A stretch of DNA of 63,088 nucleotides, counting the filler, from Bilabrum cf. latius (taxonomy: Eukaryota), in NCBI GenBank assembly GCA_965178125.1. It is 3 parts of 3 records of this genome, joined end to end, with 100 filler letters (N's around TTAATTAATTAA, not from the genome) between each part and the next. Parts side by side here need not be neighbours in the genome. Positions count along the whole stretch, not along the records: positions 22,685 to 44,398 come from CBCXTV010000046.1; positions 44,499 to 63,088 come from CBCXTV010000051.1; 1 more part is not named here. One strand, given 5' to 3'. Numbering within the stretch: the first letter of the stretch is position 1; each line of letters opens with the position of its first letter. The notes below the pieces were generated by a model that worked only from the letters and a program-made list of their open reading frames with translations, made no database searches and had not been told where the DNA came from. The position numbers and the translations under genes were made by a program. This document shows, piece by piece, positions 22,685 through 63,088 of this stretch.

Positions 22685-23871
22685 CGCGTTTGTTCGCGGA
22701 GCCACGTCGTATCAGCGGCGGAAATGGTGTGCGAACTCACCAAGAGAATTTGCGGCAATGCTTTCTGTATCTCCACTTTGTCTGCAAGGAAAGCGAGAAG
22801 AGAGAAAGCTGTGCGCTTGCTCTTGAGGGAGGCACCTGTCGCGGTACGCGGCCGCGCCTCGCTTCCAGGTGTGTTCGGGCACTCAGTAAACCTGGCTTCG
22901 GCGGTGTCCAGAGGCGGCACGAACTCTCGTCGAAATTGAGGAAGACGGTCGTTTTGTTGTGCGGCACGGTGTGCTCCAAAAAAAATCGCCCACTTCCACA
23001 TGGCCGTTGCCTCGTGTTTGCCGGGAATGCGGTGGTCTGTGGGACGATTTGGCGGGCCCGATTTTGCGGCCGGAATCCGGCCACCCCCCATGTGGTGGAA
23101 TGAATGCGTGGGCCCAAAATCGTGGCCATTTTCTGGCCGCAAAACTGGGCCCGCAAAAGTGGCCCGGGGGGGATTTTTTGGGAGCCGCCGGTGGGGCAAA
23201 TTTCGGGTTCTGCCCTGCCGGAAACCTTGCGCGCCGCCTCCTGCGTCGTCGTGCCCGTCCCGGTGGGCATAGCGTGCCCCGGCGTAGCGCCCATCGACGC
23301 ATAAAGCGACGCATCCACTTTTTCCTGAGCGGGGGGAGCGCTGCATGCAACGGGACGTCGTGAGCGGCAGTGGCCACACTTTCGCATGCCGAAGCGTGCG
23401 TACGTTGTGTGTACACGGCCCGAGTACTCGGCGCCAGACCGCGTCCCCGGTTATGTTCATCGATCCATTGCACCAGATCTTTTTCGCGCAGATATTTTTC
23501 GGCGTCGCTTTTTCGTCGAGTCCACCATGCCGTCGTGGCCTCGTCGTTCATGTTTGTTGTGGTACTTCTCTCTCGCACCACGTTCATGAATTTCGTCGCG
23601 TTGACGGGCACGCCCAATTTCCGGCTGAGCACTGCTTCGAGGAAGGTGTGTGCTGCCCTCCCGCTGTCTGGGACACGCATGTAAATCACGATCGCGGTGT
23701 CCCGATATCGAGGTGTGCAGTTCTGGCCGGTCACCTCAACACCGCTCGCCGTGCCTGCGACACGCTCGGCATCGCGTCGCTCCTCCGCCCGATTTCTCTT
23801 CGCATATTGCGTAAAGCATCCGTAAGGTCATTGCGGCGCGCACGTGCGTCGGTGATTGCGGACCTTTTCAT
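22685..23871 (-). pseudogene. 5' half of pogo-like DD35D transposase (copy of 33011..34995), cut by contig end; intron 23011..23225
   Basis: near-identical to 33810-34995 with small indels. Confidence 0.85.
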
Positions 23872-24384
23872 CGTTCGGGCCTCAGCTTTTCAGAGGCGCC
23901 TCGCGAAAAGGGCTGCAGACAAGATGCCGCTGTCGGGGGGCTCTCATGCCGGGTTATAGTTCCCTGTAGCGAACTGTGCACTGGCGGATGTGCCTGCAGT
24001 GCGTGGTTCTCGTGCTGCGGGGCACGCCTACCACCAATTCCTAATATGCGTCGTCGTGATCAAGTTTCGTTCCATGCTCGGCGGGGTTTTGGTACAGCCT
24101 TTTTTGACGGATCTCATATGTCGAGCCATGCTTTCCTCTTGCCCTTTTTCCAAAGTGCTTCAGATCATTTCCCAAATAAGCGTATTGCCTAAGTAAATCG
24201 CGGCACCATAGAATTGGGATACCCCTTTCCGCGCGATTGCAGAATCAGCCACTGGCATCATCCGCCTGTACCTGGAGCCTTTCCTGCTTCGACTTCTTCG
24301 TGGAATGTGCCTGGCGTCGCCATCATACAACCAACAAACCACGTGAATAAGCAACGACTCCGTTTTTTCCAAAGAGCTTGCGTC

Positions 24385-24750
24385 CGCTGGCTCCCCCGCC
24401 CACCCGCTCGTCCGCCAGTCCACCCGCCCACCCGCCCGACAGGCCTGCCGGCCCTCCCGCCCGCCCGCCCGTTCTCCCGTTCGCCCTTCGTCCTCCCGCA
24501 CATCAGCTCGCCCGCCCTCCCGCCCCCCCGCTCGTCCACCCCGCCCGCCCGTCCTCCCGCCCGCCCGCGTGCTAGCCCGCCCATCAGCTCGTCCGCCCGC
24601 CCGCCCGTCTGCGCGCCCGTCCGCCCGCCCGCGCACCGGCAGGCCCGCCCGCCCGTCCGCCCGTCCGCCCGCCCGCTTGCCCGCCCGCTCCTTTACCCGC
24701 TCGCCCGCCCGCTCGTCCGCCCGCCCGTTCGGCTCCCCGCCCACCCGCCC
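24385..24750. repeat. degenerate (GCCC)n tract; others at 26350-26920, 29230-29400 and copies 35505-35875, 37470-38040, 40305-40475
   Basis: directly visible. Confidence 0.95.
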
Positions 24751-25059
24751 AGTCGCATGCCAATTCCCAATGTCAAAACGCCATCAAGATAAAATTGTCC
24801 AACTCAAACATGCGAACGCAGCACCGGCAGCTCACGTGGACGCACGGCGATGTGTCTCTAGATCCAAGCGTGGGCATCAGCTCGTGCTAGTGAAGCGTCC
24901 ACGTTTTCTCCATTTCCTGCATCTCATCATCATAACATTGACCAAATTACACATGTCAAGGATACACCGGCAGCTCACGTGGGCGCACGGCGATGTGGAT
25001 TTTCCATGCACGCGATCACAGTCCATCGCATTCAATCGCAGCAGAGGACGAGTGTCTTT

Positions 25060-26172
25060 TTAGACAACCACGTCCGCTGCTTGCCTACTCGCCTGCAAAA
25101 GGTTTTCCCATGTCGCGTCTGGGTGCACCTCCAGCTCATGCTGGAACGCCGGTTCCGCGTACACAGACACACCCGCGTTCGCGGGATGCGAGTACAGCGA
25201 CGCAACGTGCACAGTGTGCACCCAGACATGCGTGGGAAAACTGCTATCGGGGTAGGAGATCCACTGATGGCGGTCCCCCCGCGCCTGCTCGGCGCAACAC
25301 GGTTTTCCGCTTTTGCGGATCTTCGTGCGGACTGCGGACTTCCAAAAATGGACCGTACAACCACCCCGAGTCGTCGAGAGCGCTGTAGAATGTGTACGAC
25401 GACAGAAGATGCGCACGTTGAGGCGCGAAACTATAAATTCCCTGCAACTCCCGCCCGGCATCAAAATTCCGAGCCCACCCGGTCGCGAGACCGCAAAAAA
25501 AACAATGCGGTGAAGTACTTCCAGCGCTGTACCATGGAAGCTCGTTCGAAACCGGGTCTCGTCGAAATCTGTGTCGATCCTCTCTGCTGCGGGCAAATCG
25601 AATCTCACATAGAAACCGACGGGAGAAAAAGAACCCTCCGGGTGGTCTATGGCACCGCGAACAATGCCATTCAACAACCGCGGCCGGGTCGCGATCCATT
25701 CCCACAAGGTACGGACCGCTGTAAACGGTCGGGCGTCGCGTCGCCCCATCGATCCGCCTGCGGCGATCCAATGAGTGAAGCTTCGCTCTCGACCAGCATC
25801 CAGAGCGATGACTGGATTAGTTCCGCGCCACCGCCGGATGTGCGGGGCCGGCGCGTTTTCCACGCCGTCCCACAGAAAACGGCCCATACCGCGTCGCCAA
25901 GCCAGGGGCCCGGCTAGCATTGGGGCCGCGGGCGGCCACGGCGGAACGTCGCCGGGCATGCCCTTAAAATGCCGTACGTATGACGGCAATTCGTCGACCA
26001 TGAGATAGGCGCCTGGGGTCGTGCCGCTCTCAGTCGCCACCCGGCTTGCCGTTGCGGCAGGCTCTTCCGGCGCGTTCGCCATTTCCTGTTCGGAGACCAG
26101 CTCTGCCGGAATGTCCGCCGACGCGACCGCCTGCGTGACCGACGCTTGGTCGACGCTGCTTGTCGCCATCAC
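25060..26172 (-). CDS. putative ADP-ribosyltransferase (PARP-like fold) protein, frameshifted at a T8 run (+ strand A8, 25495-25502) and at a G run near 25278
   Basis: Joined frames read FHGTALEVLHRIVF-CGLATGW..QGIYSFAPQRAHLLSSY..GPFLEVR..QW, matching the HGT..I..GL / GIY..A..Y pattern. Confidence 0.55.
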   Translation of the reverse strand: MMATSSVDQASVTQAVASADIPAELVSEQEMANAPEEPAATASRVATESGTTPGAYLMVDELPSYVRHFKGMPGDVPPWPPAAPMLAGPLAWRRGMGRFLWDGVENAPAPHIRRWRGTNPVIALDAGRERSFTHWIAAGGSMGRRDARPFTAVRTLWEWIATRPRLLNGIVRGAIDHPEGSFSPVGFYVRFDLPAAERIDTDFDETRFRTSFHGTALEVLHRIVFFAVSRPGGLGILMPGGSCREFIVSRLNVRIFCRRTHSTALSTTRGGCTVHFWKSAVRTKIRKSGKPCCAEQARGDRHQWISYPDSSFPTHVWVHTVHVASLYSHPANAGVSVYAEPAFQHELEVHPDATWENLLQASRQAADVVV

Positions 26173-27563
26173 CTTTTATGTCCAAGGTCCAAGCAATGGC
26201 ATCTATATCTGGGCGGTGCTGCAATAGGTATGAATCGAAAAAGAAGAAATGCCCGGTCCTTCCCGCTTTTCGTTCACATTTCTCGACAAAACGCCGGCAG
26301 CTCACGAGGGCGCACGGCGGACCAAAAGACACCTGAATGGATACGCTTCGCCCGTGGCGACCTGCCCGCCCGCCCGCCCGCTCGCCCGCCCGCCCGTCTG
26401 CCCGCCCGCTCGCCCGCACGTCGGCTCGCCCGCTCGCCCGTCCGCCCGCCCACCCGCACGCGCCCGCCCGCCCTCTCACCCAATTGCCCGCCCGCCCGCC
26501 CGCCCGCTCGTCCGCGCGTCCGCCCGGCGGCCCGCCCACCCGCCCGCCCGCGCGCCCGCTCGCCAGCCCGCCCGCCGGCCCTCGCGCCCGCTCGCCCCGT
26601 TTGCCCGCCCGCCTCTCCGCCCTCCCGTGGCCCGCCCGCTCGCGAACCCGGTCGCCCGCCCGCCCGCCCGCCCACGCCCGTCCACCCGCGCATGCCCGCC
26701 CCCGCCCACCCGGCCGCCCGTCCGCCGGCCCATCCGGCAGCCAGCCGGCCCGTCCGCCCGCGAGCCTGCCTGCCCGCTTCTGCGCGCGGTCGCCTGCGCC
26801 CGCACACCCGCGCGCGCCTGCGTGCGTGCGCGTGCCGACCCGCGCGCTTGCCGGCCCGACAGCTCCACCGAGCAGCCGCTCGGCTGTCCGACCGCTTTCC
26901 CGACCGCCCGCCTTGGGCGCACGGCGACAGATGAAAAAGAAAAGAGTGGTCACTCCATTCCTCCAGCAGGAACGTACCAATGCAGGAAGACATCTTTGAT
27001 GACATTCTCCATCGCGATTTCCGTTTTTTCTCACGTGTGCCGAGGATGCAGACACACTTGTTCGTCAAAGTCGCTGATGACATCAGCATCTCATCGGCCA
27101 CGCGCCGTGACGAAAAACACAGCCAATCAAGCGTCGTGCATGGAACTCATGCAAATCGGATTCAACTGCTTCCCACACATGAAACTAGCCACATTGGTAC
27201 ATCGTTCAAAATAAAATGATGGCATTTTGACACAGACAATGTTCTCGCCGCCGGTCAGTTCTTTTTCTATGAGGGTCACCAAGACACAATTCTGACCCCC
27301 CCCCCCCCCCCCCCCCCCAATTACACATATGAAATTGCATTCTGCGCACACGTGTTGTCTGACATGCAATGCATACGCAAGATCAGACTCCGGCTATGGA
27401 TCTTTCCATCCGAACCGCAATGACAACGGATGCTCAAAGTTTCACGCGTTACACAAAAACGCACTATACATTGCAAACAGTAAGCTATACAAAACAAAGT
27501 TCGCGTTGCGAGGCACTATCTGTTTCCTGCCTGTCGTCACGAACTCAAAGGCGTCATGGCGCT

Positions 27564-28061
27564 TTACGGCCATTTCACACCGACCTCGCGGGCACGACGT
27601 CGGAGTTCGACGCCCTGGGTCGGCGTGCATCCGAGCCAGCGAATGCGCCTATTAAATTCTTGCCACTCGGCATGGCCGACGGGCACAAGATCAGGGTGCT
27701 TATGGACAACACTCCATGGCAACCCTTTCTCCGTCCCGAATGCGGGGTATTCACTCGGCAACCGCGGCGGTACGCCGGCTCTGCGAAATTCAGCGTCTGT
27801 CAACCACTGATATTTCACGCCCTCGTCATTCAGGTCGTAGATCGACTGCACCCATCTCCTGTAACGCGCTTCACACGTGCGAATATACGAGCGCACCCAT
27901 GCGGACGGGTCGCCCACCGACTCGCCACCAGCGCTTGAGGACGTCGGCATATCCGGCACCTCTCCCGCTTCATCCGCCGGAGAAATTGGCGAAGCATTTC
28001 CATACCTCGCCATACCCACCGATGCAGAGGAAACTCGGGATGGGGCGACGACAAGACGCAA
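27564..28061 (-). CDS. hypothetical protein (~150-165 aa)
   Basis: protein-like composition, intact in both copies (38677..39174), co-oriented with the other unit genes. Confidence 0.45.
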   Translation of the reverse strand: MRLVVAPSRVSSASVGMARYGNASPISPADEAGEVPDMPTSSSAGGESVGDPSAWVRSYIRTCEARYRRWVQSIYDLNDEGVKYQWLTDAEFRRAGVPPRLPSEYPAFGTEKGLPWSVVHKHPDLVPVGHAEWQEFNRRIRWLGCTPTQGVELRRRAREVGVKWP

Positions 28062-28399
28062 TCAAACGACATCTGAATGCGAGCACCAACATTTCGGGTT
28101 CGAATGAATGATCTCTTGCAAGAGGTGAAGGCCAGAAAGCACTACCATTATGTGCTCAAGCTCCTGCACGCAGACATGGGACAGTGGAATAGCAAAACGC
28201 CACATTTTCATGAAAGCCGAATATTCACGACCGGCAGCTTACCATGGGCGCACGGAAAAGAAAACAAAATGTGAAAAATACGCTTTTCCCGCCGTCGCTT
28301 CCGCAACAAGATGATACACATGTCGCACGTCTACACAAATGCCCACACTCTTCTGGACACACCATGACTCTACACAAATGCCCACACTCTTCTGGACAC

Positions 28400-30440
28400 A
28401 CCATGACATCAAAACCGCATGCCCGCACGGCGGGCGCCAGGCAACAATTTGGCACGCTGTCCTGTGACGGACTTGCACCACAGAGAACCGAGACGGATAA
28501 CGCAAACTGCCTAACACGCCCTTCGTTTACCATGACAAGGCAGAGACCCACAGGGAGGACCGCAAAACGCGTCCACGTTGCGGACGCGAAATCAGGCCCA
28601 GAATACGGCCTCCATTTTGCGGCCGGAAAATGGCACCAAAACCCGGGGCAAAAATGAGGGACCCAACTGTTGGGTCCCCCTTTTTTCCTCTATTTTTTGC
28701 GGCCGTTTTCCGGCCGCCGAAATAGGCCCGCGGCGCGGGCCGCCGAGCAGCACACCTCTGGGGGGGCCACTGTACACAGTTCCCCAGCCACACGCAACTC
28801 TCCTGGACAATGGCACACGCCGCCGGCAGACAAACTGTACTAACCGGGTCGGAAATACACCGACCCACCGAACGCACAAGCATGTTCTTGATGTAGGCTG
28901 CACCACAGCTTTGCGGAGCAAAAAGAGTGTGCTGGATTTGGCCACGTGCGGCACGCAAATTCCCACACATTGTCACGATGTTCGTCGAATCTTTGTCCAC
29001 CTTCCCTCCATTTTCCAGAAGTGTCGCGATGTATGGACCAAGTCCGGTCCAATTTCGGCAATCATAGCTCATTGTCCGGGACCCTGATTGCCGCCAAAAA
29101 TGACACAAATGTGGCGGCGATTAAGACAACTTCTCGGCGATTTTGGTCGATTCTAGGCAATGTTGGCAGTGTTTCCCTTGGCTGTCCATACCATAACGAA
29201 TCGGCAGTCTCTGTCGCGTTCTACTCCTTCACGCCCGCACGCCCGCGGGCCCACCCGCCCGCCCGCTAGCCTGTCCGCCCGTCCGCCCGCCCGCCAGCCC
29301 GCCCGCCTGCCCACCCGTGCGCCCGCGCGCCCGCCCGGCCGCTTACTCGCCCGCCCGTCCTCCCGACCGCCCGCCCGCCAGCCCGCCCGCCCGTCCGCGC
29401 TGCGCGGTACGAACATCTTCCGTCGTGTACCGCTACCGCTCGTTCTTGTTACGCGGGTGAAACATGCACGCAAACCTGCGAACATCAATCTCTTCTCGTG
29501 TGCACACACGATGCCGCACTACACTGGCGACGTGAAATGTGACGACCACATGATGATAACATTCACCATGGTACAAGTTCAAGCGTGACACCGGCAGCTC
29601 ACGTGGGCGCACGGCGATGCGTTTCTGAATGAGAAAATGCAACATGAGGTCGCAGCGATGAGACGTTTCTGGTGGTAGATGGGGAAAAAGAAGACGAACC
29701 ATGCCACACGCAGCATCAAAAAAACCACGCGTCATTTCGATTTTACTTCATTACACACATCCTCGCCGAAGTGCCCTACGACTGAATCACATTGGCTCGC
29801 GCCCCGGCGTCCTTCCACGCAAAATATGCTTTTCGAATCAAATCCTGAGCTCGGGAAATCCCGCCCGCCAGAAAAAAAGGGAAAAATCATGTACGTGTGT
29901 GTGGTCAAAAGGCTGCGGCTCGATGACGCTCTTCTGCACCAACGCCTCCTGCGGCGTTTCAGCTCGACTCGGCAAGTAGCGAGCCGCTCACAACGATGCC
30001 TGTGATGCTAAGGCAGCAGACCGGGCAGTTGCGGGCTTCCGGCGACGCAACTTTGGGAAACGGATTGGCTGCGAGGGTTGCGTGCAAGATTCTCTGCAGA
30101 GAAATCTCGGTTGAGTAGAAGCCACCCAACGCCTACGGTGTTTGGGCGGCAGAGAGGGAAGGCTGGATCTGGACACCCTACACATGTTGGCGAACGCTGC
30201 GGCGGACGCACGGTTGTGATCAACAACCGCTGGCGGCACTGCTTGAGGGCAAGCGTTGCTGTACACGCGCAACTCGGAGCTCCGCGTCCGCATCTTCCAC
30301 GGGGTTGTCTTCAGAACATGAGGAAGGACATGTTCGTTCACGCTCGCACCGCGTTGTGTGAATCTGTGCGATGTCAAGCCCGACCACCAGCTCTGTATAT
30401 CAAGCACATCGGGCGAAAAAAAATCCCGAAGGAAGAACTA
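28400..30440 (+). pseudogene. possible highly decayed pogo-like transposase relic with hairpin insert 28590-28745
   Basis: Weak colinear resemblances to the intact enzymes: LRLDDALLH vs VILDCAPQH; LRARFSAEKSR vs LRETWMQERSR; VINNRWRH vs VLSSGSWQ. Confidence 0.3.
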
Positions 30441-30635
30441 TGAAAAATAGAACGACGCGGGGACACAAACCAATGCAATTCAATTCCAAAACATCCATGT
30501 CGGAAGATCACCATAAACAAGACACTCCCTTCCACAATATCTCCAGGACACGTACCTGGGAGGCAGAGCAATCGTGTTTCGATTTTCCTGCCAAGAGACA
30601 CGCTTTCAAAACACAACTTCAATCACAAGACAAAA

Positions 30636-31090
30636 TTACAGCGCGGTACGCGGGACCCACAACGCATCACCGGCATAATAATACCGGCTGTTGTCCTGGA
30701 TCCACTTTCTCTCCGACACTGACAAACGATTTAAACCCGAGTTCCAATCGTTGCACAAAACAACAATCTTCGCGCGGTGAACCCACTGGCGATGGCTGTA
30801 CATATTCGTCGCCGTGTGGGACAAGGACACCCACTCCGCGGGCGCCTGAAAAAGGCGCTTGTTCTGGATGACTAAGGATGCCGAAGCCTCATCCATCACA
30901 ATCACCTCATCATGCAGCGGTCGAAATGACCGAAGATCGGGCTGCGTTGCTTGTTGGCAATCACAGAAAAAGACAAGCCCGGTATCGGCCAAAGAGCATG
31001 CGTACTGCGTCTTTCCGACGCAGGAAAGGCCGTCCAAAATTAAAAAGCGATAGCGGAGAATCCGCGCGCAGTAGAGGACGAATTTGGGCT
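30636..31090 (-). CDS. SF3 helicase domain resembling the geminivirus/CRESS Rep C-terminus
   Basis: LRYRFLILDGLSCVGKTQYACSL (Walker A), VIVMDE (Walker B), KIVVLCN (motif C), WIQDNS; compare the geminiviral GDSRTGKT..IDD..IFLCN..W..N layout. Confidence 0.85.
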
Positions 31091-31091
31091 G

Positions 31092-31484
31092 TGAGAGCGC
31101 GCTCTGAGAGAGCGCTCTGAGAGATCGTTCTGACAGCGCTCTGAGAGAGCGCTCTGAGAGAGCGCTCTGACAGAGCGCTCTGAGAGAGCGCTCTGAGAGA
31201 GCGATCTGGGAGAGCGCTCTGAGAGAACGCTCTGAAAAAGCGCTCTGAGAGAGCGCTTTGAGAGAGCGCTTTGAGAGAGCGCTCTGAGAGAGCGCTCTGA
31301 GAGAGCGCTCTGAGAGAGCGCTCTGAGAGAACGCTCTGAAAGAGCGCTCTGAGAGAGCGCTTTGAGAGAGCGCTCTGAGAGAGCGCTCTGAGAGAGCGCT
31401 CTGAGAGAGCGCTCTGAGAGAGCGCTTTGAGAAAGCGTTTTGAGAGAGCGCTCTGAGAGAGCGCTCTGAGAGAGCGCTCTGAGA
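31092..31484. repeat. 13-bp quasi-palindromic minisatellite (GCTCTGAGAGAGC)~30
   Basis: directly visible; copy at 42187-42582. Confidence 0.95.
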
Positions 31485-31881
31485 ACGTCACGTCTCCCAA
31501 CATATAAGAAGAGATTCCGACTCAAGAGCCCACCATGTCTATACATGCCCGTCAGGCAGGATCTCGTCCACTGTCCGGCACATGACATACTTGCCCATCG
31601 CAGCTTGCCTTCGTATGGCAATGTCTCCATTTCATCATCTTGTCCTTCCGCCAGGGACTTCCAGATAGCCAAAACGATCCGACCAAAAACCGCCCAACAG
31701 CACGGAAACACCCACATCCAAAGAACGGGGACCCCTCAAAGATGGTATCGACGCCACCTGTTTCCCGCGGTTCTTTTTCCGATTCGCGCTTCTCGCACAC
31801 GTTTTTTTGGAGGCATTCCTTCTCGATTTTGCCTGGTTTGGGCCCCCTCTTTTGGGGAGTTCCTTTTTTCCCTAAAAAAAA

Positions 31882-31953
31882 GGGGGGAGCGGAAGCGCTG
31901 GGAAAGGCTTTTAAATATTAAAAGCGCTTTCCAGCGCTTCCGCGCTACCCCCC
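31882..31953. promoter_or_regulatory. long stem-loop with AT-rich apex, candidate rolling-circle origin
   Basis: GCGGAAGCGCTGG/CCAGCGCTTCCGC outer stem and GCTTTTAA/TTAAAAGC inner stem; minus-strand apex TAATATTTA (31912-31920). Hairpin is observed, function is inferred. Confidence 0.6.
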
Positions 31954-32702
31954 CCCCTTTTTTAAGTCATTTTACACTAGTTTTTGAGCATTTAGGGGGG
32001 TAGCGCTAGGGCGTTTTCCACGCTACCCCCTGTTTTGGCCTCGATTTTGGCAAATTCTCCACCAAATTTAGCCCATTTTCCCCATTTTTCTAGGGTGTTT
32101 GTGATTTTTCTCGATTTTTGGGGGATTTTTCGTGGAAAATTCCACACTTTTCACCGAATCTGGGCCGATTTTCCTGGGTTTTTTGGGGATTTTCGCGATT
32201 TGTCTCCATTCCCGCCCCACCCTCCCCCCTCTCTTCTTATGCATTTTCGCGATTTTTTCGCCAAATCTGGTCCGAGGTCAGTGGTCATGGCCGGTTCTGT
32301 GCGATGTTCAGGGATTCTCATCGATTAAGGCTATTTGTTAGGGACTTCGGGCGGTTCTGGACGACTTCTTCCGATTCTGGTTGATCTTGGCTGTCTTTCT
32401 CTCCGCTCTCCGTGGTCAAAGGACGCTTCGCTCTTCGTCGATTTGCCTGCTCATGTCGCTGAGGTGCGTCTGCTGGTCTCCTTTTGCCAGCCGGTGGTCT
32501 CCATGCAGTAGCGCGTCTCTTTCGCCGCAGCTTTTTTCGCCTCAGAGTCATCCATGTCACAATGAGCAATGAAACCAAAGTCACGAGGAATGGCATGCTC
32601 TTCATTCACACGTGAAACAACAACACTTCGATGAACCATGTCGCAGTATGATGCTCGTGTGGCGCGCCTTCACGCCTCCTTCGCCGATGAGTTCTTTTTC
32701 GG

Positions 32703-33104
32703 CTATTTCGGGGAGGCGGATGACGACGCTGCGTCGCCGGCCTTTTCGCTGTCGGCGTCCGGGCGACTTGCCTCGCGCATGAGCATGACCTCAGCGAGGT
32801 CGTCGTTGCTCAAACGACGTGCGTTTGCTTTCAAACGGCGACGTCGCTTTTCGTGGTTGCGGAGGTCTTTTGTCACCCGCTTTCGCTCGGCTGTCATTGC
32901 CGCCTGTTTCGCCCGCAGCTCGTCGATTTTCGTCGAGAGCGGCTTCGGCGGCGCGCCTCCGGGAACGGCCGTTGCCGCAGCGACTGCGTCGTCCAGCTGC
33001 CTTTCTTCTGCTACGGCCTTCGCGTCGCCGGCCAGAGCCGGCGCGCTCTCGGCAGCGACGATGCCGCGCTCGTTGTCGCTTCCGGCCTCGCTGCGCTCCG
33101 ACAT
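32703..33104 (-). CDS. 133-aa protein with acidic N-terminus and basic coiled coil; start overlaps the transposase 3' end
   Basis: IDELRAKQAAMTAERKRVTKDLRNHEKRRRRLKANARRLSNDDLAEVMLMR; homolog at 45772..46242. Confidence 0.75.
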   Translation of the reverse strand: MSERSEAGSDNERGIVAAESAPALAGDAKAVAEERQLDDAVAAATAVPGGAPPKPLSTKIDELRAKQAAMTAERKRVTKDLRNHEKRRRRLKANARRLSNDDLAEVMLMREASRPDADSEKAGDAASSSASPK

Positions 33105-45059: not shown

Positions 45060-45280
45060 TTTCGGCCAGCGAAAAAAATGCGAAACACGACTGGAGGAGG
45101 CGAGGTAGTGCTCGGTAGTGCTCGTTTCGCGCGGTTTTTACATAAAAAAATGCCGTTTTTCTGGAAAAAAAAGCTCAAAAACCCCCAGTTTTTGACACGT
45201 AGTGCTCCGATTTCCCTGTAAAATGCAGGATTTTTTCACGGTAGTGCTCCCCTTTTTTCCGCTTTCCCCGACGCCAGGGA

Positions 45281-53259: not shown

Positions 53260-53456
53260 CAGTGCGCTGGGTAGGTCCGCAGGTCAAGGAGGCGTTCGCA
53301 GTTATAGACGTAGGTGGAGTTTGCGAGCTGCCGGCCGACATGCTCATGTGGTGACCTCCGGTCACCACATGTGCATGTCGGCCGGCAGCTCGCAAACTCC
53401 ACCTACGTCTATAACTGCGAACGCCTCCTTGACCTGCGGACCTACCCAGCGCACTG
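53260..53456. repeat. near-perfect 197-bp palindrome (97-bp arms, 3-nt loop)
   Basis: cagtgcgctgggtagg..ggtgacc-tcc-ggtcacc..cctacccagcgcactg, one mismatch seen. Confidence 0.95.
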
Positions 53457-54189: not shown

Positions 54190-55137
54190 TTACGTCATGG
54201 AGCCCCACGAAGTCGTGCAGATGATCAGGGCGATACCGTGAGCATCCTCCTTCTCCGTCTTCTTGCCGCCGTCGTACAGCCTGGCCGCGACACGATCTTG
54301 ATGCCAAAACTCGAGTGTGGCGCGGATCCGGAAACAGTAGCCGTCCGGGAAGTTGCCCTGCATCAACTGGTCCTCCACCGCACACTGCGTGCACGATGGC
54401 ATCGCGGAGATGAATTTCTCCGCATTCCGGAGAAGCTCCATGGCCCGGTTGATATCGTCCAAGGCCTCGTCACGCGAAGGACTCTGACGCACGGCGTTGC
54501 TGCACGAGGCGGCGTCCCCTGCAGAAGGCTCGTCGCGCGCGGGAGCACGAGCGTCGTTGTCGCCGTCAGCGGTATTCGCGCAAGCTTTTGGCACCCAACG
54601 CTTCGCTTCACCCGCAGAGGAACGGACATCATGGAGACTCCAGCCACGCGCAACCAGGCACTTCGCGCACCAGTCCTCAGGGAAGAAGTAGCGCAGGTTC
54701 TCCCTCTTCCGGCGGATCTGGGGAAATCGGTACGCCGGAAACTCGTTTTTGCAATTCTTGCACCTCACCCACCACGGCGTCGCGTTGTCGAACTTGTCGC
54801 AACACACCCGGCAAACTGGTTGGATCCAGTCCTTCCACTTCTTGAAGTACTCTGACCGGGGCTTACGGCACTGGCACGCGTTGCAAGTCCATGTCGCCTC
54901 CTCCGCCGGCTCCGGCGCGACCTGCCACGGCACGTACGGCTCCCCCCATGACGACTTCGCAGGCGTCTTCCATGAACCCCAGGTTCCGACATCCTTCCCG
55001 TCTGCCACGCCGCCACCCGCCTTCCAAGCGGCTGCGTCTGACCATACGTCGCGAGCATCCTCCTCCTCCGTCTTCTTGCCGCCGTCGTCTTCGGCGTCCT
55101 CCTTCGGCGCTGCCTTGCCGCTCTCCTCTCCGAGCAT
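54190..55137 (-). CDS. chimeric Cys-rich zinc-ribbon ORF
   Basis: CNAC..CRVC, CKNC..CAKC, CTQC; C-terminal part shared with 60043..61107. Confidence 0.45.
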   Translation of the reverse strand: MLGEESGKAAPKEDAEDDGGKKTEEEDARDVWSDAAAWKAGGGVADGKDVGTWGSWKTPAKSSWGEPYVPWQVAPEPAEEATWTCNACQCRKPRSEYFKKWKDWIQPVCRVCCDKFDNATPWWVRCKNCKNEFPAYRFPQIRRKRENLRYFFPEDWCAKCLVARGWSLHDVRSSAGEAKRWVPKACANTADGDNDARAPARDEPSAGDAASCSNAVRQSPSRDEALDDINRAMELLRNAEKFISAMPSCTQCAVEDQLMQGNFPDGYCFRIRATLEFWHQDRVAARLYDGGKKTEKEDAHGIALIICTTSWGSMT

Positions 55138-55889
55138 CCCCGTGGACGCCGCCTCCGCGCCGCCGCTCTCGATGTGGGGGCCGCCTGAACATCGACGCTT
55201 GCCGCCGCGCCGGCGTGCTCCGCCGGGGCGTCGACCTCGCGCGCCAACATGCCGCCCTCGTTTCCCATATTACCGGCGCCTTGACGCCCACGAAGATTGC
55301 GGCCGTCTCCCAAGGAAACAGCAATGCTCTCGGACGGTTTCTCCTCAGACATCATCGGCAAAGAGACTCGGAGAATGCCGTTCCCGCCTGCTTGACCCGA
55401 CTGCAGGCCTGGCACTTGAGGTTGGTGATCACGGCCGACTGCTCCCCACCCAAATACCAGATCGTACGCGAGCGCAGCCTATGAGGAATCCACTGGCCCG
55501 ACTTCCGGGGCACGACCATCGCCAAGAGCTTCGACTGCGGCGCGTCGATCTGCACCCTCGACCCGCAATCGCTGAGCGTAATGGCGTCGTCGAAGATCCA
55601 CGTGCCGCCCCAAGCATGCCGCCTGCGCTGCTGCCGGGAGCTCGGGTTCGGTACCTAAAAGCCGTACACGACATTCGGCCTGCTGCCGGCCCAAATGAAA
55701 TCCTCCGCCACGCGACAACGATGCGACCTCTCGGAGTCCGTCATGCATACGTGGAAGTGCACCAGGTTTCCGGCGTGCTTGCGGTGCAGGGAGAGCTCCA
55801 TTTTCGTCCCGCTGCCGCGCAAGGTCTGGGAAGAGCGTCCGCATGGCCGACATCATCCGGAGCAGGGCGTCCGCATGCTCGACATCATC

Positions 55890-56105: not shown

Positions 56106-59100
56106 CGTACTTGATCATGTACCTCATGGCTGGGCCGCCCGCAACATCGACGCTTGCCGCCGCGCCGGCGTGCTCCGCCGGGGCGTCGACCTCGGAAAGT
56201 GTTTCGGTACGCAAAAAGCGGTCACATGGGAGGCCCGGAAAGCATGGCATCACCCTTGCCGTCCACATCACTGCGTCGTGGGATGCTGCTCAAGATAACT
56301 CGGCGTCTGTTTAGTCGAGGGCTGTCTTGACTAGGAATGTGGCGGTGAAATCCAGGAGTTCCGTCTGCATCGTCAGGCTCTTGCCTTTCTGTACCATATC
56401 AAGAGGAGAGGGAAGACATGCAAAACCGACCCGCCACTAATTCTATCCTACGGCCAAGCCACCTGCGGCGTCCGCGCGACTGGGCGTGCACGAAAACCGG
56501 CGCACTGCATTGCTTAAAGTGCCACGCTCCCAAGCGAAGTAGTATTGGTGCGCTTGCAGCGGCACTTATCGGTGCGCCGGAGGTCACCACACGAGCATGT
56601 CGGCCGGCAGCTCGCAAACTCCACCTACGTGCTGGGAGTGGCACATTCTACTGCTTGAAGTGCCACACTGCCGAGCGAAGGAAGCACCTCTTGGTACGCC
56701 CCTCTTGGTACGCTTGCAGCGGCGCTTATCGGTGCGCCGTGGGGAACGGCTCGCGTGGGATTCGGAGGCGTACCCGGCCCACGACGGGAAGAGTTCCCCA
56801 GTTACGTCTGGAGTGATTGGGGGACAAGGTGGGCATCAAGTCGGCGCCTCCTAAGCGTATCACAGAGGATGACGAACCGCCCGCCCCGCTTCGATCCCGA
56901 CCTCGAGGTGCACTCGAAATCAAGGCGGAACGCTGGAAATCCGCCCCCGAAACCCTCCATGTTTGTTGACAAGGACCCAGGCTGCGCTCCGACAAGCTGA
57001 CAAACTTCGTCAGCTTCCGAAGGGTCTTCATTAAATATTCAACGCTTCGGGGTCAATGAGGTAATGCACTACCAAAGAGCAGCTGGGCCGTGTGTCGTCC
57101 GAGATGACAAAGATCGTGGGCATCATCGATCCAGAGGGCGTCAAAGGCACGGACGGCGCGGGCGACATTGACCCCGACGAGCTGGAGGTCCTGGACCGCG
57201 TCTGGACGCCCCATCCGGAAGTATTCCTAAGCGCTCCCGACGGACGAGACCTTCTCTGTCTGAAATCAGGCACCCAACCCTTCCGCACAAGGTGAAGAGA
57301 GAACGCCGACGGACAATATCCTCTCTTTTGCACATCGGGCATCCAACCCCTCCGCACAGGTGAGCAAGCAACGAGTTCCCTTCTCGCGACGTCCGGATCC
57401 ATTTTGAAGCGTTGGAATTTTCGCGCGCTGAGCAGACCCCAAATTTACGATGAAGAAGCCCAAATCCTGCGTCCATGAAGGCCTTGCGAGGCCGCCTGCT
57501 ATTGGCAGTCGACGCTCCGGGATCCACTGCGCAATGCAGTTTTGCAGAGCGATGCAGTATGCGCGGGAAGACGGCAAAATGGATCCGTATCTTTGGGAAA
57601 AGGTCTGTGCATCGCACAGCTGCCGCACGGAGAGCTGCTTCCGTTCCACGGCTGGTGAGGGCCCGATGCTGCCCTACTCATGCCCCACGGCCACACACTA
57701 AGAGGAACGGATTGTGTCAAGATCCCGCCGCAGCATGGGTACGCGGATCTGCCTCCATAGGGACGGACGGGAGGAGCTGCCGGCGGAGGGCGGGCGGGGG
57801 TCCGGCCAAGCCAAGCGGCCAGGTACTTCACGCTCTGCCCTATGGCGCTGGGTTCTGTGAGGCGGGGCCTATCTGTGATCCTCGGCTCTGTGAAGGTGCG
57901 AAGCGCTATTCACGATTCGACTTCGCCTTACTCCTGGATGAGGCGGCGGAGCTGCGTGCTGGGATCTCTTCCTGTGGCGTCCGAGCGCGATGGCGAGTGC
58001 ACGCTTGGCCGTCATAGAGAAAGGCACGGCGAAGTACCACATCTTCGCCACCCACCACATTTCGCCAAGCACCACCTCGTTGGCAGGCTCCCTCCCGGAG
58101 TAATGGCGGGCTTCGGGAACGCGAAACGCACAAGTTCTCCGGTTTTCCGCGTAAACCCTCCCCGGCAGGCGACACCACTGAAAAAACCCTCCAAGGTCTG
58201 GGCGCGTGTCGCCATGGTGGCGGTGACATGGGCATGGACCTTCCTAATGTGTCATAACCGCGAGCCCCAGGCATCCCACCTCTGTCCCACATGTTTTGCG
58301 GTTTTTGGCGTAAACTTTGTCGGCAGGCGCTCTCATGCACGGCGTTGGCGACGGAGAATGCCGTTCCCACAGAGTGCGCTGCTGACTGCCGAAGCCGAAA
58401 GAGGATCCGCGGAGAAGGAATCTCGCACATGCTCCCAGGAAGAGCAACTCCTCCGGCTTCACGCCCACACATGCTGGACTGGCTCTATCCCCGCCCATTC
58501 CGAATGCAAGAGCGCACTCCCGCCCTTTCCGAGATCGAGAGTGGTGATGGCACGTTACGTTACGGTGGAGCTCAGAGTCATTTGTGTGTTCAACAGAGAC
58601 GCGGCGCTTCGCAAGAGGCTCCTCACGTGCCGGACCACGAGCGTCCTTGGCGCCGTCAGCGTGCCTGCTCTCGGCGTCCCGACACTTATCGGTGCGCCGT
58701 GGGGAACGGCTCGCGTGGGATTCGGAGGCGTACCCGGCCCTTTGAAGCGTTGGAACAATGCGTGCTGCGGGAAACTTTTTAGCACCCAACACTTCGTATC
58801 ACCCGTCACCGAACGGCCGTCATACAGACTCCAGCCAATGACGACCAGGCATGTCGCGAGACCACTATAAAAACCTTCCAAGCTCCGCGGGCGTGTCACA
58901 ATGCTGGCGGTGTCATGGGCATGGACCTCCCCAATCCGGCAGGACCGTGAGCTCCTGGCATCCCACCTCTGTCTTAGAAGTTTTCCGGTTTTTGGCGCAA
59001 ACCTTCTGGAGCAGACGACAGCAGCGAAAGACCCACCCAAGCTCCGCGGGAAGTGTGATACCTCTACGGTTCCGGCATCTACTTGGCCGTGCACATATGC

Positions 59101-59652
59101 AAGGCGATGCACTACACCTGCGCGTCCGGCTGCACCCGCTTGAACGACAGGTTCCTCTCCGTGCAAGTGGTTCCGCGACAACAAGGTCGTGGAAGTGACA
59201 GACTAGGAGAGTACGCCGGGTTCAGATTCACGCCCATCAGGGACAGGTCCGGGTCCCGCGCTCGCGCTACCGCGTGAGGAGGCTATGCGCACGTATGAGG
59301 AGGGGAGAACTTCGTATAATAGTCTCTCGCAGACTCGAACTTTTGGCTCTCACCGAAGGACGGAATGTTAGCCCTCCGCTACTTACGGTGTCTTTAGCTT
59401 CCGCCCTACACGTTCCCCGCCCGTGGTCAAGAGGGAGTTTGTCGAGACACGCACCCGCCCGAGAGCTCCGGTCCTCTAAGCGCTCACGATCTCCCGCCCA
59501 GCGCGGTGCGAGCCCGCTTCACCGGGACTTGTCGCGTGCCTACGGAGGTGTCTTTTCCGAACCTGCCACTGAAGACGTTAGGGAGCGACGGGGAACGGAT
59601 GCACAACGGTATGCCACCCATGTCCTCGAGGAATCCACCAAGACGTTGTGGC

Positions 59653-59773
59653 CCGAGGTAGTGCGATTTTCGGGAGAAGGATTCTTAGTACCTTATAGGG
59701 TACCCCCCAGGATCGCACTACGTGGGTTTGGGGGGTTGGTCTCCTTTCCTCTTGTTTTCGTGTGCACTCTTCT
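59653..59773. repeat. second copy of the stem-loop direct repeat
   Basis: near-identical to 45281-45397. Confidence 0.9.
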
Positions 59774-60042
59774 GCGACCGCCCCCCCCGGGGAACGGATG
59801 CACAACGGTATGCCACCCATGTCCTCGAGAGATCCACCAAGATCCGCACATACCTCTGCGGTGAACAGCACGTTACATGAGACCCTGACCGACCCGAGAG
59901 TCTCTGCCCTCAGTCTCCACGACTTCCCGCAGGATCCGCCCCGCTCCCACCGACGGCTCCTGCCGTACGTACGACGCACCATTTTCAAAAGAGCATTGGC
60001 ACCCGCTCCTCACCTAAGCGACGATACTGTCGCTGCGGTCCC

Positions 60043-61107
60043 TCACGGCACGCTCTCCGGTCCGCCCGGTGCGAACTCAGAGTCGTCGTCTGTCGAAACG
60101 TGGTCGCTGTGGAAGATGTTGCTCTGGCCGTCTGAGGACACGGCATCCTGCCAGTATCGACGCAACTGCTCCGCCACGTCCATGGCCGCATGGGAGCTCA
60201 GCGGGATCTGCTCGAAGAGAGCGTTACTGTCGTGCACTGCAAACAGCCTGGCCGCGACGCGATCTTGATGGCAAATTTCGAGTGTGGCGCGGATCCGGAA
60301 ACAGTAGCCGTCCGGAAAGTTGCCCTGCATCAACTGGTCCTCCACCGCACACTGCGTGCACCAAATAGACCGCTCGGTACGTCGTATGTAGCCGGGCCAC
60401 AGGGAATGCAGCAACGAGTACTGAGCCCGACGCAAGCTCTTCGGGTTGAAGCTGTCCGCCTGCTTGACCCGACTGCAGGCCTGGCACTTGAGGTTGGTGA
60501 TCACGGCCGACTGCTCCCCAGCCAAATACCAGATCGTACGCGAGCGCAGCCTACGAGGAATCCACTGGCCCGACTTCCGGGGCACGACCATCGCCAAGAG
60601 CTTCGACTGCGGCGCGTCGATCTGCACCCTCGACCCGCAATCGCTGAGCGTAATGGCGTCGTCGAACACCCACGTGCCGCCCCAAGCATGACGCCTGCGC
60701 TGCTGCCGGGAGCTCGGGTTCGGTACCTCGCGAGGCCTGTCGGAAGGGGGGTCCGTCGGCTGCGGTGGTGTCGGATACCAGGAGAGAGCGGTCCACGGAT
60801 TGATGCACGTGGACGTTGCCGCCTCGCGCGTCGCCGGAGTGGCTGAGCTGTCTGGTCGACGAAACGGTGGCGCCCACGCCGTGCAGGCCGCCACCTGCGC
60901 GGGCACATCGGGCAAGAATGCGCCTGCAGGTTCACGTGGCCGAGGTCGGGGAAGCTTCGTCGGGGTCAGGGATCCCATCGAGGAAGCCGCGTTCGCCGCT
61001 GGGATGGTCGTGCTCGAGGTTGACGAAGTCGCGTTCGCCCCTGACATGGTCGTGGTCGAGGTCACGGCATGGCCGCCGAGGGGTGAGCGCGATCGCGGGG
61101 GGTCCAT
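60043..61107 (-). CDS. 354-aa protein with a CxxC..F..CxxC zinc ribbon (Stc1-like pattern); start overlaps the transposase stop
   Basis: KCQACSRVKQADSFNPKSLR..WCTQC; ATG at 61107. Confidence 0.55.
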   Translation of the reverse strand: MDPPRSRSPLGGHAVTSTTTMSGANATSSTSSTTIPAANAASSMGSLTPTKLPRPRPREPAGAFLPDVPAQVAACTAWAPPFRRPDSSATPATREAATSTCINPWTALSWYPTPPQPTDPPSDRPREVPNPSSRQQRRRHAWGGTWVFDDAITLSDCGSRVQIDAPQSKLLAMVVPRKSGQWIPRRLRSRTIWYLAGEQSAVITNLKCQACSRVKQADSFNPKSLRRAQYSLLHSLWPGYIRRTERSIWCTQCAVEDQLMQGNFPDGYCFRIRATLEICHQDRVAARLFAVHDSNALFEQIPLSSHAAMDVAEQLRRYWQDAVSSDGQSNIFHSDHVSTDDDSEFAPGGPESVP

Positions 61108-62699
61108 CCGTTTAGTCTGCGGCCACGAGGCACGCGGCGAGCGTTACCACCGTGGACGCCTCCGTCGACCCCGTGTCCGGACGCGACTGGGGCCCTGTTG
61201 ATGAGCGCATCGTGCGGGAGAGGCTGCTGCGGACTGCTGATGAAGCGGAGCTGGTCGACAGACGGAGCATCGCTGGAGATGTCCTCCATGTCACACTCAA
61301 ACAAGCGCCGTAGGGTCGAATGCAAGCGGCGCCTGCCGCTGGTAATGCCTGTCATATCGAAAGCGCCTTGCCACGAGCCAGACGAGAGCACTCTCTTCGT
61401 GCACTCAGCGACAACCCTGAGATGGCAAGAGACATCGACATGACCCGCTTCATGACGCGAGCGCTCCTGCATCCACGTCTCCCGAAGGTCGCGCTTAAGA
61501 AGCTGAAAGACGAGAACGTCCAACGGCTGAAGCAAGAAGGTGAGTCGACCAGGAATAAACACGAGATCCATGCCAAGGCCGTGTGCGAAGTTCACAATCT
61601 CAGTGGAAATGTGTTGGGGCGCGCAGTCAAGTATCACTATTGGATAGATCTCATGCTGAATGTCCATCCAAGAAGCGAAAAGCCGACGCAGAATGTCGAA
61701 CATGAGGGACTGCGTCACCCACGAGCTCTCTCGGGCCCAGACTTCCATTCCGTCCACCATTTGGTTCGACGCCCCACGCATCAAGCGCTTGCTCAGCCGC
61801 GTGTGCTTCCCGATGAGTATACGCGGGAGTCGTCGCTGGATTTCCGGGCAGTCGCTAATGAAACCCAGAAAGGTGTACGATCCTCGATTGCTATTCGAGG
61901 CGAGGCGCTCCGTGCGCGAACCAAGCGAAGCGGGCTCCGTTCCTGACCTCGGTGCGATGTACCCGCGCATTCCCGGAAAGGCAAAGGGCACGCTGGACTC
62001 ATCGAAGTTCACAAAGACGAGGCGGCGGTTGCGGGGCACTCGCGCTTCTGCGAATTCAATCCACTGATAGAAGACACGACACGCGAGTCTGACGTAATCG
62101 AGTGTTACCGGGGGCTGCTTCTTCAATCGGCCATGCCGAAGCCGCCAACGACGACGGAAGCGCAGGAGCCACTGCCGTCGAGCCGAATCCTTCCCCGCGC
62201 GAACGCCCATCCTCGCAAGCATGGCGAAAACCATGTTCCCAGTTGGAGCACACCCACGCTGCTCGTTCACATGGTCGATCCAAGCAACGACAGAAGCCTC
62301 GGCGAGAAAGGTCTCCGCGCGTGCCACGGACTCTCGATGACATGAGCGAAGAGGATTTCGCTGCCACGCCTCAGCTGGGCGCCTCATGGTGAGCGCGACC
62401 TCCTCATCGACCTGCCTTTGAAACTCCTCCTGCGAAGCCGTCCGCGTGGAAACCTGTCGACTCTGCAACTGACGAGAGACATAGGTTCGAAGAGCTGCCT
62501 CGCCACCTCCGGGGTGATGACGAATAACCTCAGCGACCTGTGCCTCCATGGCGCGCAACCACGGATGGCGCAGCCCATTGCGCGCCCGTTGTCTCGCGTC
62601 TCTGAGACACTTCAGCTCCTTACTGATCCGTGCGAGCTGATCCGGCACCGAAGCAGAGGACATCATGACGCGTGAGGAACCGGGCAGAAGATCGCTCAC
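61062..62699 (-). CDS. intact intronless pogo-like DD35D transposase, ~535-545 aa
   Basis: WLLRFRRRW (CENP-B-type HTH end), FVNFDESS, VILDCAPQH, LQPLDVLVF; 35 residues between D2 and D3. Confidence 0.92.
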   Translation of the reverse strand: MSDLLPGSSRVMMSSASVPDQLARISKELKCLRDARQRARNGLRHPWLRAMEAQVAEVIRHHPGGGEAALRTYVSRQLQSRQVSTRTASQEEFQRQVDEEVALTMRRPAEAWQRNPLRSCHRESVARAETFLAEASVVAWIDHVNEQRGCAPTGNMVFAMLARMGVRAGKDSARRQWLLRFRRRWRLRHGRLKKQPPVTLDYVRLACRVFYQWIEFAEARVPRNRRLVFVNFDESSVPFAFPGMRGYIAPRSGTEPASLGSRTERLASNSNRGSYTFLGFISDCPEIQRRLPRILIGKHTRLSKRLMRGASNQMVDGMEVWARESSWVTQSLMFDILRRLFASWMDIQHEIYPIVILDCAPQHISTEIVNFAHGLGMDLVFIPGRLTFLLQPLDVLVFQLLKRDLRETWMQERSRHEAGHVDVSCHLRVVAECTKRVLSSGSWQGAFDMTGITSGRRRLHSTLRRLFECDMEDISSDAPSVDQLRFISSPQQPLPHDALINRAPVASGHGVDGGVHGGNARRVPRGRRLNGWTPRDRAHPSAAMP

Positions 62700-63088
62700 A
62701 GCCGAAACGACGCGGACGGACCCGCTGCCAAGCTTCGCACTGCCTGTGGCCTCTGAAGATACCCGGGAGGGATAGGACGCAGGCGGGGAGCGAGAGCAAG
62801 CGAATGCCTTCCTGTCGCTGGAGGAGTGCTCAAAGCTGAAGACGCGCGGGAAGCACCCGCTCTGCTGCGGTCACACTGGCGCAAGCGAGACAAAACCAGG
62901 GAGAGGGATAGACACGTGCACAGCATTGAATACACCTCGCAGCATTGCGAGCGCGGTTTCTCGCCTGCGCTGAGCTGCCACTCTGCTCTCGTGCGGACGA
63001 CATTGGCAACGGCAGCGCGTAGCTGCCAACTGGCCGTGCACGGGTACTGTATCGGCCACGGCAGCGCTGAGCTGCCAATTTCGGGTCG

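Follow-up and report, generated by a model that had tools for sequence, protein, structure and literature searches.

What brings a pogo-like DDE transposase gene and a fragment of a virus-type replication protein together, on one strand and with a small gene between them, in a eukaryotic genome? The question is raised by a stretch of 63,088 nucleotides (nt) from Bilabrum cf. latius (assembly GCA_965178125.1), the whole of which is here called the window, and which consists of three contigs joined via N spacers: contig 1 (1-22584), contig 2 (22685-44398, from CBCXTV010000046.1) and contig 3 (44499-63088, from CBCXTV010000051.1). An earlier note on this DNA had picked out a transposase with a DD35D triad, a basic coiled-coil (CC) gene, a stem-loop and a Rep of the kind found in CRESS-DNA viruses, whose circular, single-stranded genomes encode Rep, and had proposed that they make up a composite element family. 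The transposase-Rep association is real and old, and apparently undescribed, while the copies in the window are defective. That DD35D transposase, CC protein and a Rep with HUH nuclease and superfamily 3 (SF3) ATPase are associated by more than chance adjacency is, in our judgement, quite probable. The reading preferred here is that the copies in contigs 2 and 3 are defective and rearranged members of a family of selfish elements built of two modules, and it is given about one chance in two.

Contig 2 is a head-to-tail repeat, as had been described, with unit 1 at 22685-33809 and unit 2 at 33810-44398 (self-alignment; both minus strand), the transposase end of the first being cut off by the contig start and the contig end falling inside the CC region of the second. 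Its transposase gene (33011-34995, minus strand) has the DD35D character claimed for it: the product matches Pfam DDE_1 with 37.6 bits (Pfam cutoff 22) and has a D/D/D triad with 35 residues between the second Asp and the third. Its N-terminal, putatively helix-turn-helix (HTH) part (34995-34393), which scores 17 bits against HTH_Tnp_Tc5, under the cutoff of 22.2, is read in one frame and the catalytic core (34123-33011) in another, with ~270 nt between them; of the second copy, in unit 1, the 5′ part is left at the contig start (22685-23827, minus strand). Terminal inverted repeats (TIRs), which the earlier note had not seen either, are absent from the flanks of this transposase in a search sensitive to repeats of ~37 nt at 80% identity, and the whole 11.1-kb unit has no inverted pair besides three local palindromes.

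Within the ~270-nt gap between the two transposase parts lies a palindrome of the TTTTCTGGCCGC…GGGCCCGC type (34173-34283), and the same palindromic motif is found at the same place in the transposase genes of two metagenome loci described below, L016 (1045-1084) and L035 (2497-2705). Because its position is equivalent in these three diverged loci, it is a conserved feature and not a random insertion, and the stretch is possibly a conserved intron, or alternatively an insert with a structure of its own.

The CC open reading frame (ORF) of contig 2 encodes ~134 amino acids (aa) (32703-33104, minus strand; conserved core 32930-32772) and starts ~90 nt ahead of the transposase stop, so that the two ORFs overlap, just as the earlier note had it. 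It has homologues in contig 3 and in the metagenome loci L016 and L029, and the Rep-family protein P0078 carries another at its N-terminus. The unit 2 counterpart is split across two frames (43818-44310, minus strand; CC profile E 1.8e-19 and 2.9e-16). A blastp comparison of the CC protein with all stored proteins, a test of whether it is a piece of a Rep protein, gave no match.

Further along, each unit has two adjacent hairpins (unit 1, 31876-32030, with the larger at 31876-31963 and the smaller at ~31990-32030; unit 2, 42985-43140), and these substantiate the stem-loop that had been predicted: as DNA they fold with z -6.9 in unit 1 and z -6.0 in unit 2, none of 200 shuffles being as stable. 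The loop of the larger hairpin is AT-only and has, by eye, NANTATTA-like words on the plus strand in both units, and GAAGCGC/TAGCGC words are repeated around the hairpins. In the larger stem the two units agree in the 17-nt core arms and differ in the loop sequence, and the smaller stem is GGGGGTAGCG/CGCTACCCCC in unit 1 versus GGCCGAAGCG/CGCTTCGGCC in unit 2, with three positions changed on both sides and pairing retained, these paired changes falling inside a stretch of 80% identity. Elsewhere L016 alone has a comparable hairpin pair upstream of Rep (z -3.9), which is insufficient for a family-wide claim.

The Rep-like SF3 helicase reported for contig 2 is present as its SF3-type ATPase end and no more. 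The fragment in unit 1 (30645-31055, minus strand), with Walker A GLSCVGKT, Walker B VIVMDEA and motif C VVLCN, has 75.9% identity with aa 419-555 of P0007, a protein of 557 aa, and so corresponds to the last ~137 residues; in tblastn all seven of seven full-length family proteins match just 31055-30645 in that unit, and the unit 2 fragment (41740-42139, minus strand; tblastn) lies in two frames. A profile search of all six frames found the HUH nuclease part absent from contig 2, and the place expected for the first ~418 Rep codons is occupied by a 13-nt palindromic satellite, GCTCTGAGAGAGC, repeated 30.7 times at 31088-31484 in unit 1 and present at 42182-42582 in unit 2. A contig from sequencing run X5 covers 30679-31056 and continues for 71 non-satellite letters that, translated in frame and compared by eye, give WLAEFNRLA where P0007 has WLAEFDVLRA, which argues that other copies extend as true Rep genes.

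Relatives are plentiful. At E<=1e-3 the 154-aa P-loop ORF of the fragment matches 928 cluster representatives (clusters at 50% identity), of which 527 remain at E<=1e-10, and in nearly all the long proteins (~400-760 aa) among 150 listed the match is to the C-terminal end; a protein search with alignment A1, bounded by its word index, returned only three close proteins. The Rep-family proteins are 500-700 aa long and uncharacterised. In a motif alignment of 38 long members the conserved motifs are, in order, LLTWNGxWG, an invariant Glu, VRVHxHxF (H-x-H), YYxQxPK, GPSxxGKT, DEA and SN with an invariant Asn; no member departs from H262, H264, E246 or the Walker residues, and at least 90% have Y310 and K315. 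By this motif set the family is predicted to combine an HUH nuclease of the one-tyrosine kind with an SF3 ATPase behind it. The ratio of nonsynonymous to synonymous change (dN/dS) is 0.14-0.50 in all six locus pairs with at least 14 differences (5 of 11 pairs had too few), a pattern that speaks for purifying selection on Rep. In P0078 the CC motif stands at the N-terminus of the Rep protein itself (aa 17-69; in an independent search with a profile built without P0078, aa 20-65 at E 1.7e-5), a fusion seen in this one of the 150 listed family proteins.

Pfam and PDB searches by sequence miss the family. The Pfam Rep and viral helicase families Gemini_AL1, Viral_Rep, RNA_helicase and Parvo_NS1 match none of 10 family members and no ORF of the window, a PDB profile search with the 38 Rep sequences found no Rep and just two ABC ATPases at E 2.4, and a PDB sequence search with the Rep fragment gave nothing useful. 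An AlphaFold model of P0007 (pLDDT 81.3) has as its best Foldseek matches Rep68 of adeno-associated virus 2 (AAV2; E 2.8e-7 over 484 columns), Vientovirus Rep, SV40 large T, papillomavirus E1 and the Rep of porcine circovirus 2 (PCV2). With VIA-align, Vientovirus Rep aligns over model residues 178-549, and the PCV2 Rep ATPase aligns with Z 10.4, a root-mean-square deviation of 2.8 and 123 of 142 residues, tied with the AAA+ domains of ClpB and Lon at Z 10.6-10.8. In the protein Atlas the six nearest clusters are unnamed and the next are Gemini_AL1, Viral_Rep or RNA_helicase, mostly of Cressdnaviricota. By predicted fold and by motifs the Rep family is CRESS/parvovirus-like.

The linkage recurs outside the window. 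A scan of metagenome contigs with the six-sequence alignment A3 yielded 37 loci encoding Rep relatives, many of them near-identical pairs (P0007 alone as query gave no metagenome loci, and P0013 as query no match in viral contigs). Upstream of Rep there are 8.4 kb of sequence in L029, 4.7 kb in L016, 2.6 kb in L035, 2.1 kb in L027, 2.0 kb in L034 and 1.3 kb in L001, and less than 0.7 kb in the rest; the three loci with the longest upstream sequence all have a same-strand pogo-like gene there. It lies at 1152-2369 in L016, with its N-terminal part at 3-686, and at 3836-5050 in L029 (DDE_1 39.1 bits); the Rep ORF of L016, at 4658-6562, is of full length. In L035 a 290-aa ORF (2612-3481) starts as the N-terminal part of a transposase, which reaches as far as the first catalytic Asp, and goes straight on as Rep ATPase (E 5.3e-6), and such a fusion would be the expected outcome of an internal deletion in a linked pair. 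Downstream of Rep a transposase is found in none of the 37 loci, though L016 and L029 have 5.6 and 8.5 kb there. Neither transposase nor CC gene is present in the 1.3-2.1 kb upstream of Rep in L001, L027 and L034; these loci are uninformative rather than contrary, since that length is shorter than the gap of 2.3-3.4 kb in L016 and L029. The fused ORF of L035 is preceded by 2.4 kb of palindromic satellite resembling that of contig 2.

The CC gene takes part in this linkage. The CC ORF of L016 (2141-2572), its motif identical in kind, overlaps the transposase end as in contig 2, the overlap in the two cases being ~90-170 nt, and in L029 transposase and Rep have between them a stretch with a weaker likeness to CC (E 0.0017, …KQRLMRKANKLSAQDLMRLAVLKR…). 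With the transposase overlapping CC, and CC able to fuse to Rep, the links form a physical chain. The loci concerned are far apart in sequence: the transposases of contig 2, contig 3, L016 and L029 share 18-29% pairwise identity and all have the D/D/D triad with spacing 35, as do the homologues P0002-P0005 (P0006 is without the first D in the alignment), and the Reps of L016 and L029 are ~30% identical in the aligned segment. The proposal of a composite family, which the earlier note had made to depend on conservation of gene order at other loci, therefore stands as far as the order transposase, CC, Rep beyond the window goes, the order recurring in L016, in L029 with the weaker CC and in L035 without it, but does not extend to contig 3, where the order is rearranged.

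All parts of the unit are abundant in sequencing runs. Logan contigs of four sequencing runs were placed on contig 2; on 20 kb of it run X1 placed 26,219 contig pieces (3,135 at at least 99% identity, 8,319 at 95-99% and 14,765 at 90-95%) and run X2 placed 17,212, from which it follows that the unit is, in all its parts, a member of a diverged, high-copy repeat family. No RNA run is among those listed as containing this DNA, and marine-sediment runs contain small shares of it. The depth figures, being sums over contigs, were not used for ranking parts, nor were the listed joints in sequencing-run contigs, which lie in GC-rich microsatellites.

Contig 3 is a mosaic bearing a candidate Rep relic. 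It has no nucleotide similarity to contig 2, and in a tblastx comparison with a limit of E<=1e-4 the transposase alone is common to the two (33% over 106 aa, and a further piece of 45 aa); the short CC match emerges only when proteins are compared pairwise. Read from the high coordinates downwards, its minus strand carries the DD35D gene, an ORF with CxxC pairs, a repeat here called R, the HUH relic, a paralogue of the CxxC ORF, a 197-nt palindrome, a 921-aa ORF, the CC gene and R again. The pogo-like DD35D transposase ORF is intact (61062-62870, minus strand; first Met 62666), with DDE_1 at 44.4 bits (cutoff 22), triad spacing of 35 and 6 database homologues, and its 5′ flank, where one TIR would lie, runs beyond the contig. 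ORF analysis upholds the overlapping zinc-ribbon-type gene that had been paired with it: an ORF with two CxxC pairs (60043-61143, minus strand) overlaps the 3′ end of the transposase, and it shares a 40-aa block at 93% with its paralogue at 54190-55269.

The CC homologue that the earlier note had placed in contig 3 is also confirmed (~156 aa; 45772-46242, minus strand; pairwise protein E 2e-6), and so are the two stem-loop repeats, which are the copies of R, 137 nt long, 91% identical and 14.4 kb apart. Copy 2 (59650-59786, minus strand) has the stem GTAGTGCGAT/ATCGCACTAC with a ~40-nt loop, and copy 1 (45278-45410) together with a GTAGTGC/GCACTAC cluster beside it occupies 45105-45410 (minus strand); the stem-loops fold just modestly better than shuffles, at z -2.25 and -2.0 respectively. 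In the cluster GTAGTGC occurs in 5 direct copies within 182 nt (45105-45286) and in one inverted copy, within ~250 nt overall, where 4.4 per strand are expected for the whole window.

Directly upstream of the contig 3 CC gene is the intact 921-aa ORF (47117-49882, minus strand). It is without a Pfam family, and the protein Atlas gives a lead to GT25/GT11-type glycosyltransferases, mostly of giant viruses, with a score of 0.89, below the 0.9 line. The 197-nt palindrome (53260-53456) is 97% self-complementary, and parts of it recur at 56577-56630 and 49119-49198.

How these parts would work together can be sketched. The first module would be the pogo-like DD35D transposase gene, and the second the small basic CC gene, a spacer with hairpins and repeated words, and the Rep of 500-700 aa, arranged on a single strand in the order transposase, CC, hairpins, Rep. 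The transposase would excise and insert the unit. Rep would nick at the hairpin and copy a freed or single-stranded form, with the CC protein as a possible DNA-binding or assembly partner. Cut-and-paste transposons do not copy themselves, and copying by Rep would make such an element replicative. This mechanism, with transposition of the unit left to the one enzyme and multiplication of its freed or single-stranded copy, from the hairpin region, to the other, is offered tentatively, the odds lying somewhat against it. The window copies themselves are incapable of the cycle, as the Rep nuclease is lost in contig 2 and a relic in contig 3. A bolder version, that pogo DD35D is permanently coupled to a CRESS/parvovirus-like Rep, a hairpin origin and CC in an undescribed composite class that would cut, amplify and paste, the 928 Rep clusters marking a widespread active group in aquatic protists, we regard as doubtful.

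The earlier note's proposal is weakened by the state of Rep in the window, where the copies are defective and no contig holds a whole one, and a number of observations weigh against a two-module family. The HUH-like relic claimed for contig 3 does have a match (MELS…VHFHV…AGSRP, 55658-55852, minus strand, profile positions 232-276), but it is weak, with E 0.007 among 1,322 frames, and its assignment to Rep is correspondingly tentative. Contig 3 is ordered unlike contig 2, CC coming after the glycosyltransferase-like ORF, and a different small ORF following the transposase. The transposase-Rep pair is seen in five loci only (contig 2, contig 3, L016, L029 and L035), and two of these, L016 and L029, possibly share a data set of origin. 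Neither element ends nor target-site duplications were found, the ends of the inverted repeats in L029 not being placeable to the base, and among the 37 loci there are no terminal direct repeats of at least 15 nt, which would be a sign of a circle, and at the protein level no capsid-like gene or conserved neighbour besides the transposase.

To these are added two points about the assembly of contig 2. The near-identical 9 kb of its two units (22685-31684 against 33810-42800) differ by 13 substitutions only, compared with 79 gap runs, mostly of one base; such an excess suggests assembly errors of the indel type, and certain of the contig 2 frameshifts may hence be artefacts. The diverged final 1.6 kb could be an assembly switch to another copy.

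The most durable alternative is that two independent elements are often adjacent, one a self-contained pogo-like TIR transposon and the other a separate element made of CC, hairpin and Rep, the transposon inserting preferentially near the Rep element and in one orientation, for example at palindromes, with the fusions and overlaps as later decay. L029 speaks for it most directly. There the transposase lies between 252-nt inverted repeats of 96% identity (301-552 and 5481-5732), with a second pair of 28 nt, which bound a 5.4-kb unit with the transposase alone and leave the CC-like ORF and Rep outside; this also counts against a single two-module element. It is the one instance found of what the earlier note had named as contrary to its proposal, DD35D genes with TIRs of their own, and contig 2 shows the opposite, being without them. 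CC goes with Rep in P0078 and follows a different ORF in contig 3, the contig 3 modules are shuffled, and the Rep family is, with its 928 clusters, very large, all of which would suit independent neighbours. Contig 2 and L016 are harder to accommodate: where transposase and CC ORFs overlap by ~90-170 nt and no inverted repeat lies between them, there is no space for a transposon end. Independent insertion would also have to account for order and strand being alike in five of five loci at 18-29% transposase identity, and for the lack of TIRs within the 11.1-kb unit. On balance independent neighbours are unlikely, if by no means to be dismissed.

A different explanation, that these are endogenous CRESS- or parvovirus-like fossils that happen to neighbour abundant pogo transposons, with the tandem arrangement due to segmental duplication or in part an assembly artefact, would fit the Rep fragments and relics, which are typical of such fossils, the high-copy repeats and satellites of which the region is built, and the frequency of indel-type errors. 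It fits poorly with purifying selection on Rep in six of six informative pairs, with full-length open Rep ORFs in many loci, with the recurrence of the transposase, CC, Rep order across unrelated loci, and with a family that is high-copy and diverged within sequencing runs, and is accordingly improbable.

The tandem structure of contig 2 had been taken by the earlier note as a sign of amplification by rolling-circle concatemers, and its description holds better than that interpretation. Positions 22685-33273 and 33810-44398 are 96.5% identical over 10,673 alignment columns, with a period of 11,074-11,125 nt, which makes ~1.95 head-to-tail units of 11.1 kb with both contig ends within the repeat. 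In a base-by-base alignment the identity is 99.5-100% in all nine 1-kb bins of 22685-31684, goes down to 80.2% at 31685-32684, the kilobase of the hairpins, and is 95.1% at 32685-33684. As truncation and satellite are common to both units and divergence is greatest where a rolling-circle origin would be, the simplest account of the apparent concatemer is that a copy which was truncated beforehand underwent segmental tandem duplication recently, or homogenisation within an array; a single rolling-circle run would not leave near-identity over 9 kb beside 80% at the hairpins. That contig 2 is an integrated concatemer from its own rolling-circle replication, and so an active virus-like replicon, is the least probable explanation of all, for although the array is head-to-tail, hairpin and repeated words lie near Rep, the AT-only loop has like words in both units and the Rep family looks functional elsewhere, the Rep truncation behind the satellite is identical in both units, the units diverge most (80%) around the hairpins, with a large-hairpin loop that differs, and none of the 37 related loci is circular-looking or has a capsid gene.

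With the two-module family as the preferred reading, the components can be set beside known systems. Like Reps from CRESS-DNA viruses (Cressdnaviricota) and related plasmids, the family would have an SF3 ATPase preceded by a one-tyrosine HUH nuclease, and the PCV2 ATPase fold, the Vientovirus Rep alignment and the named Atlas neighbours all tie it to that group; close to the gene a hairpin whose loop is AT-rich, accompanied by repeated words, is a further likeness, the loop differing between units and the origin role being a candidate one. Unlike them, the family has roughly double the length and a long extension at the N-terminus, it escapes Pfam and PDB sequence searches, and the elements have no capsid gene, are circular in none of 37 loci, are high-copy and integrated, and are linked to a DDE transposase. 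Parvovirus NS1 and AAV Rep68, the latter the best whole-length Foldseek match, are of similar size and also have HUH before SF3, and AAV Rep mediates integration. Identity to Rep68 is however 10-12% with a whole-chain TM-score of 0.2, the ATPase of the family is at the very C-terminus, and no terminal hairpin telomeres or parvovirus-type capsid gene are seen. With pogo/Tigger elements of the Tc1/mariner superfamily the shared features are DDE_1, the DD35D triad, a putative N-terminal HTH-like region and, in L029, long TIRs; the contig 2 unit differs in being without TIRs, in the second ORF overlapping the transposase end and in the Rep downstream.

Among eukaryotic transposons the closest described ones with a CRESS-like Rep are the Replitrons, genomic elements whose Rep, with one catalytic Tyr, is weakly tied to CRESS-DNA Reps and at whose ends hairpins or short repeats are expected (Craig 2023, PMC10288648). 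By that paper's account the Replitron transposases are without a fused helicase, an HUQ signature is discussed and the word pogo is absent (PMC10288648). The present family differs from them in having HxH, a C-terminal SF3 ATPase and a DD35D transposase beside it. In Helitrons, according to PMC10288648, a Rep with two tyrosines is fused to an SF1B (Pif1) helicase; they resemble the family as eukaryotic elements with Rep nuclease, helicase and functional hairpin, and are unlike it in that the family has one conserved Tyr and an ATPase of SF3/AAA+ fold, not SF1B. A precedent for joining a DDE cut-and-paste transposon and a virus-type replicon as one unit is Teratorn, described in PMC5601938 as a piggyBac transposon fused with a herpesvirus, its 180-kb double-stranded DNA partner, in an animal host. 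Its transposase is of another superfamily and its partner a herpesvirus, and by that account the fusion was shown there, whereas here it is inferred. The claim that the combination is undescribed has held up, none having been found in the literature searched, supplements apart; nor does that literature describe a DDE integrase on a eukaryotic Rep-based replicon.

Other features of the window are less closely tied to these genes. An ORF labelled ART-like (25060-26175, minus strand) did not fare well as an identified gene: it has no Pfam match and no PDB sequence match, none of its three homologues has a Pfam family, and its AlphaFold structure model has a pLDDT of 34.8. What remains is an FHGT-type motif, one of the FHGT…GIY…E-type motifs of its intact 382-aa homologue P0160, relative to which the window copy is frameshifted in that stretch. 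We take these P0160 motifs to recall PARP-like enzymes. A 91-nt repeat with the core ACACCGGCAGCTCACGTGG(A/G)CGCACGGCGATG is present in 3 copies per tandem unit (24769-24859, 24912-25002 and 29536-29626, with equivalent sites in unit 2), and each unit also has a 99-nt imperfect palindrome, 77% self-complementary (28619-28717 and 39693-39791). Contig 1 has an 11-nt satellite, CAACACCATAT, in arrays at 7675-7999, 14454-14745, 15643-15912, 16786-16957 and 20322-20590, the first of them inverted with respect to the other four. The GC content is 46-66% across the window in 2-kb windows, satellites and long orphan ORFs are abundant, Rfam has no match within the window, and a search with a dinoflagellate spliced-leader motif gave none either. 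The source looks like a repeat-rich, GC-rich eukaryotic nuclear genome, a host type inferred from the DNA.

If the pairing of DD35D transposase and Rep is a stable one, it would be a new route for a DNA transposon to become replicative and, after Teratorn, a second example of a transposon merged with a virus-type replicon, with a bearing on the exchange of modules among single-stranded DNA viruses, plasmids and transposons. Irrespective of the pairing, the Rep family, with its 928 clusters, its signs of purifying selection and its invisibility to Pfam and PDB, is a sizeable annotation blind spot in protist genomes and aquatic metagenomes.

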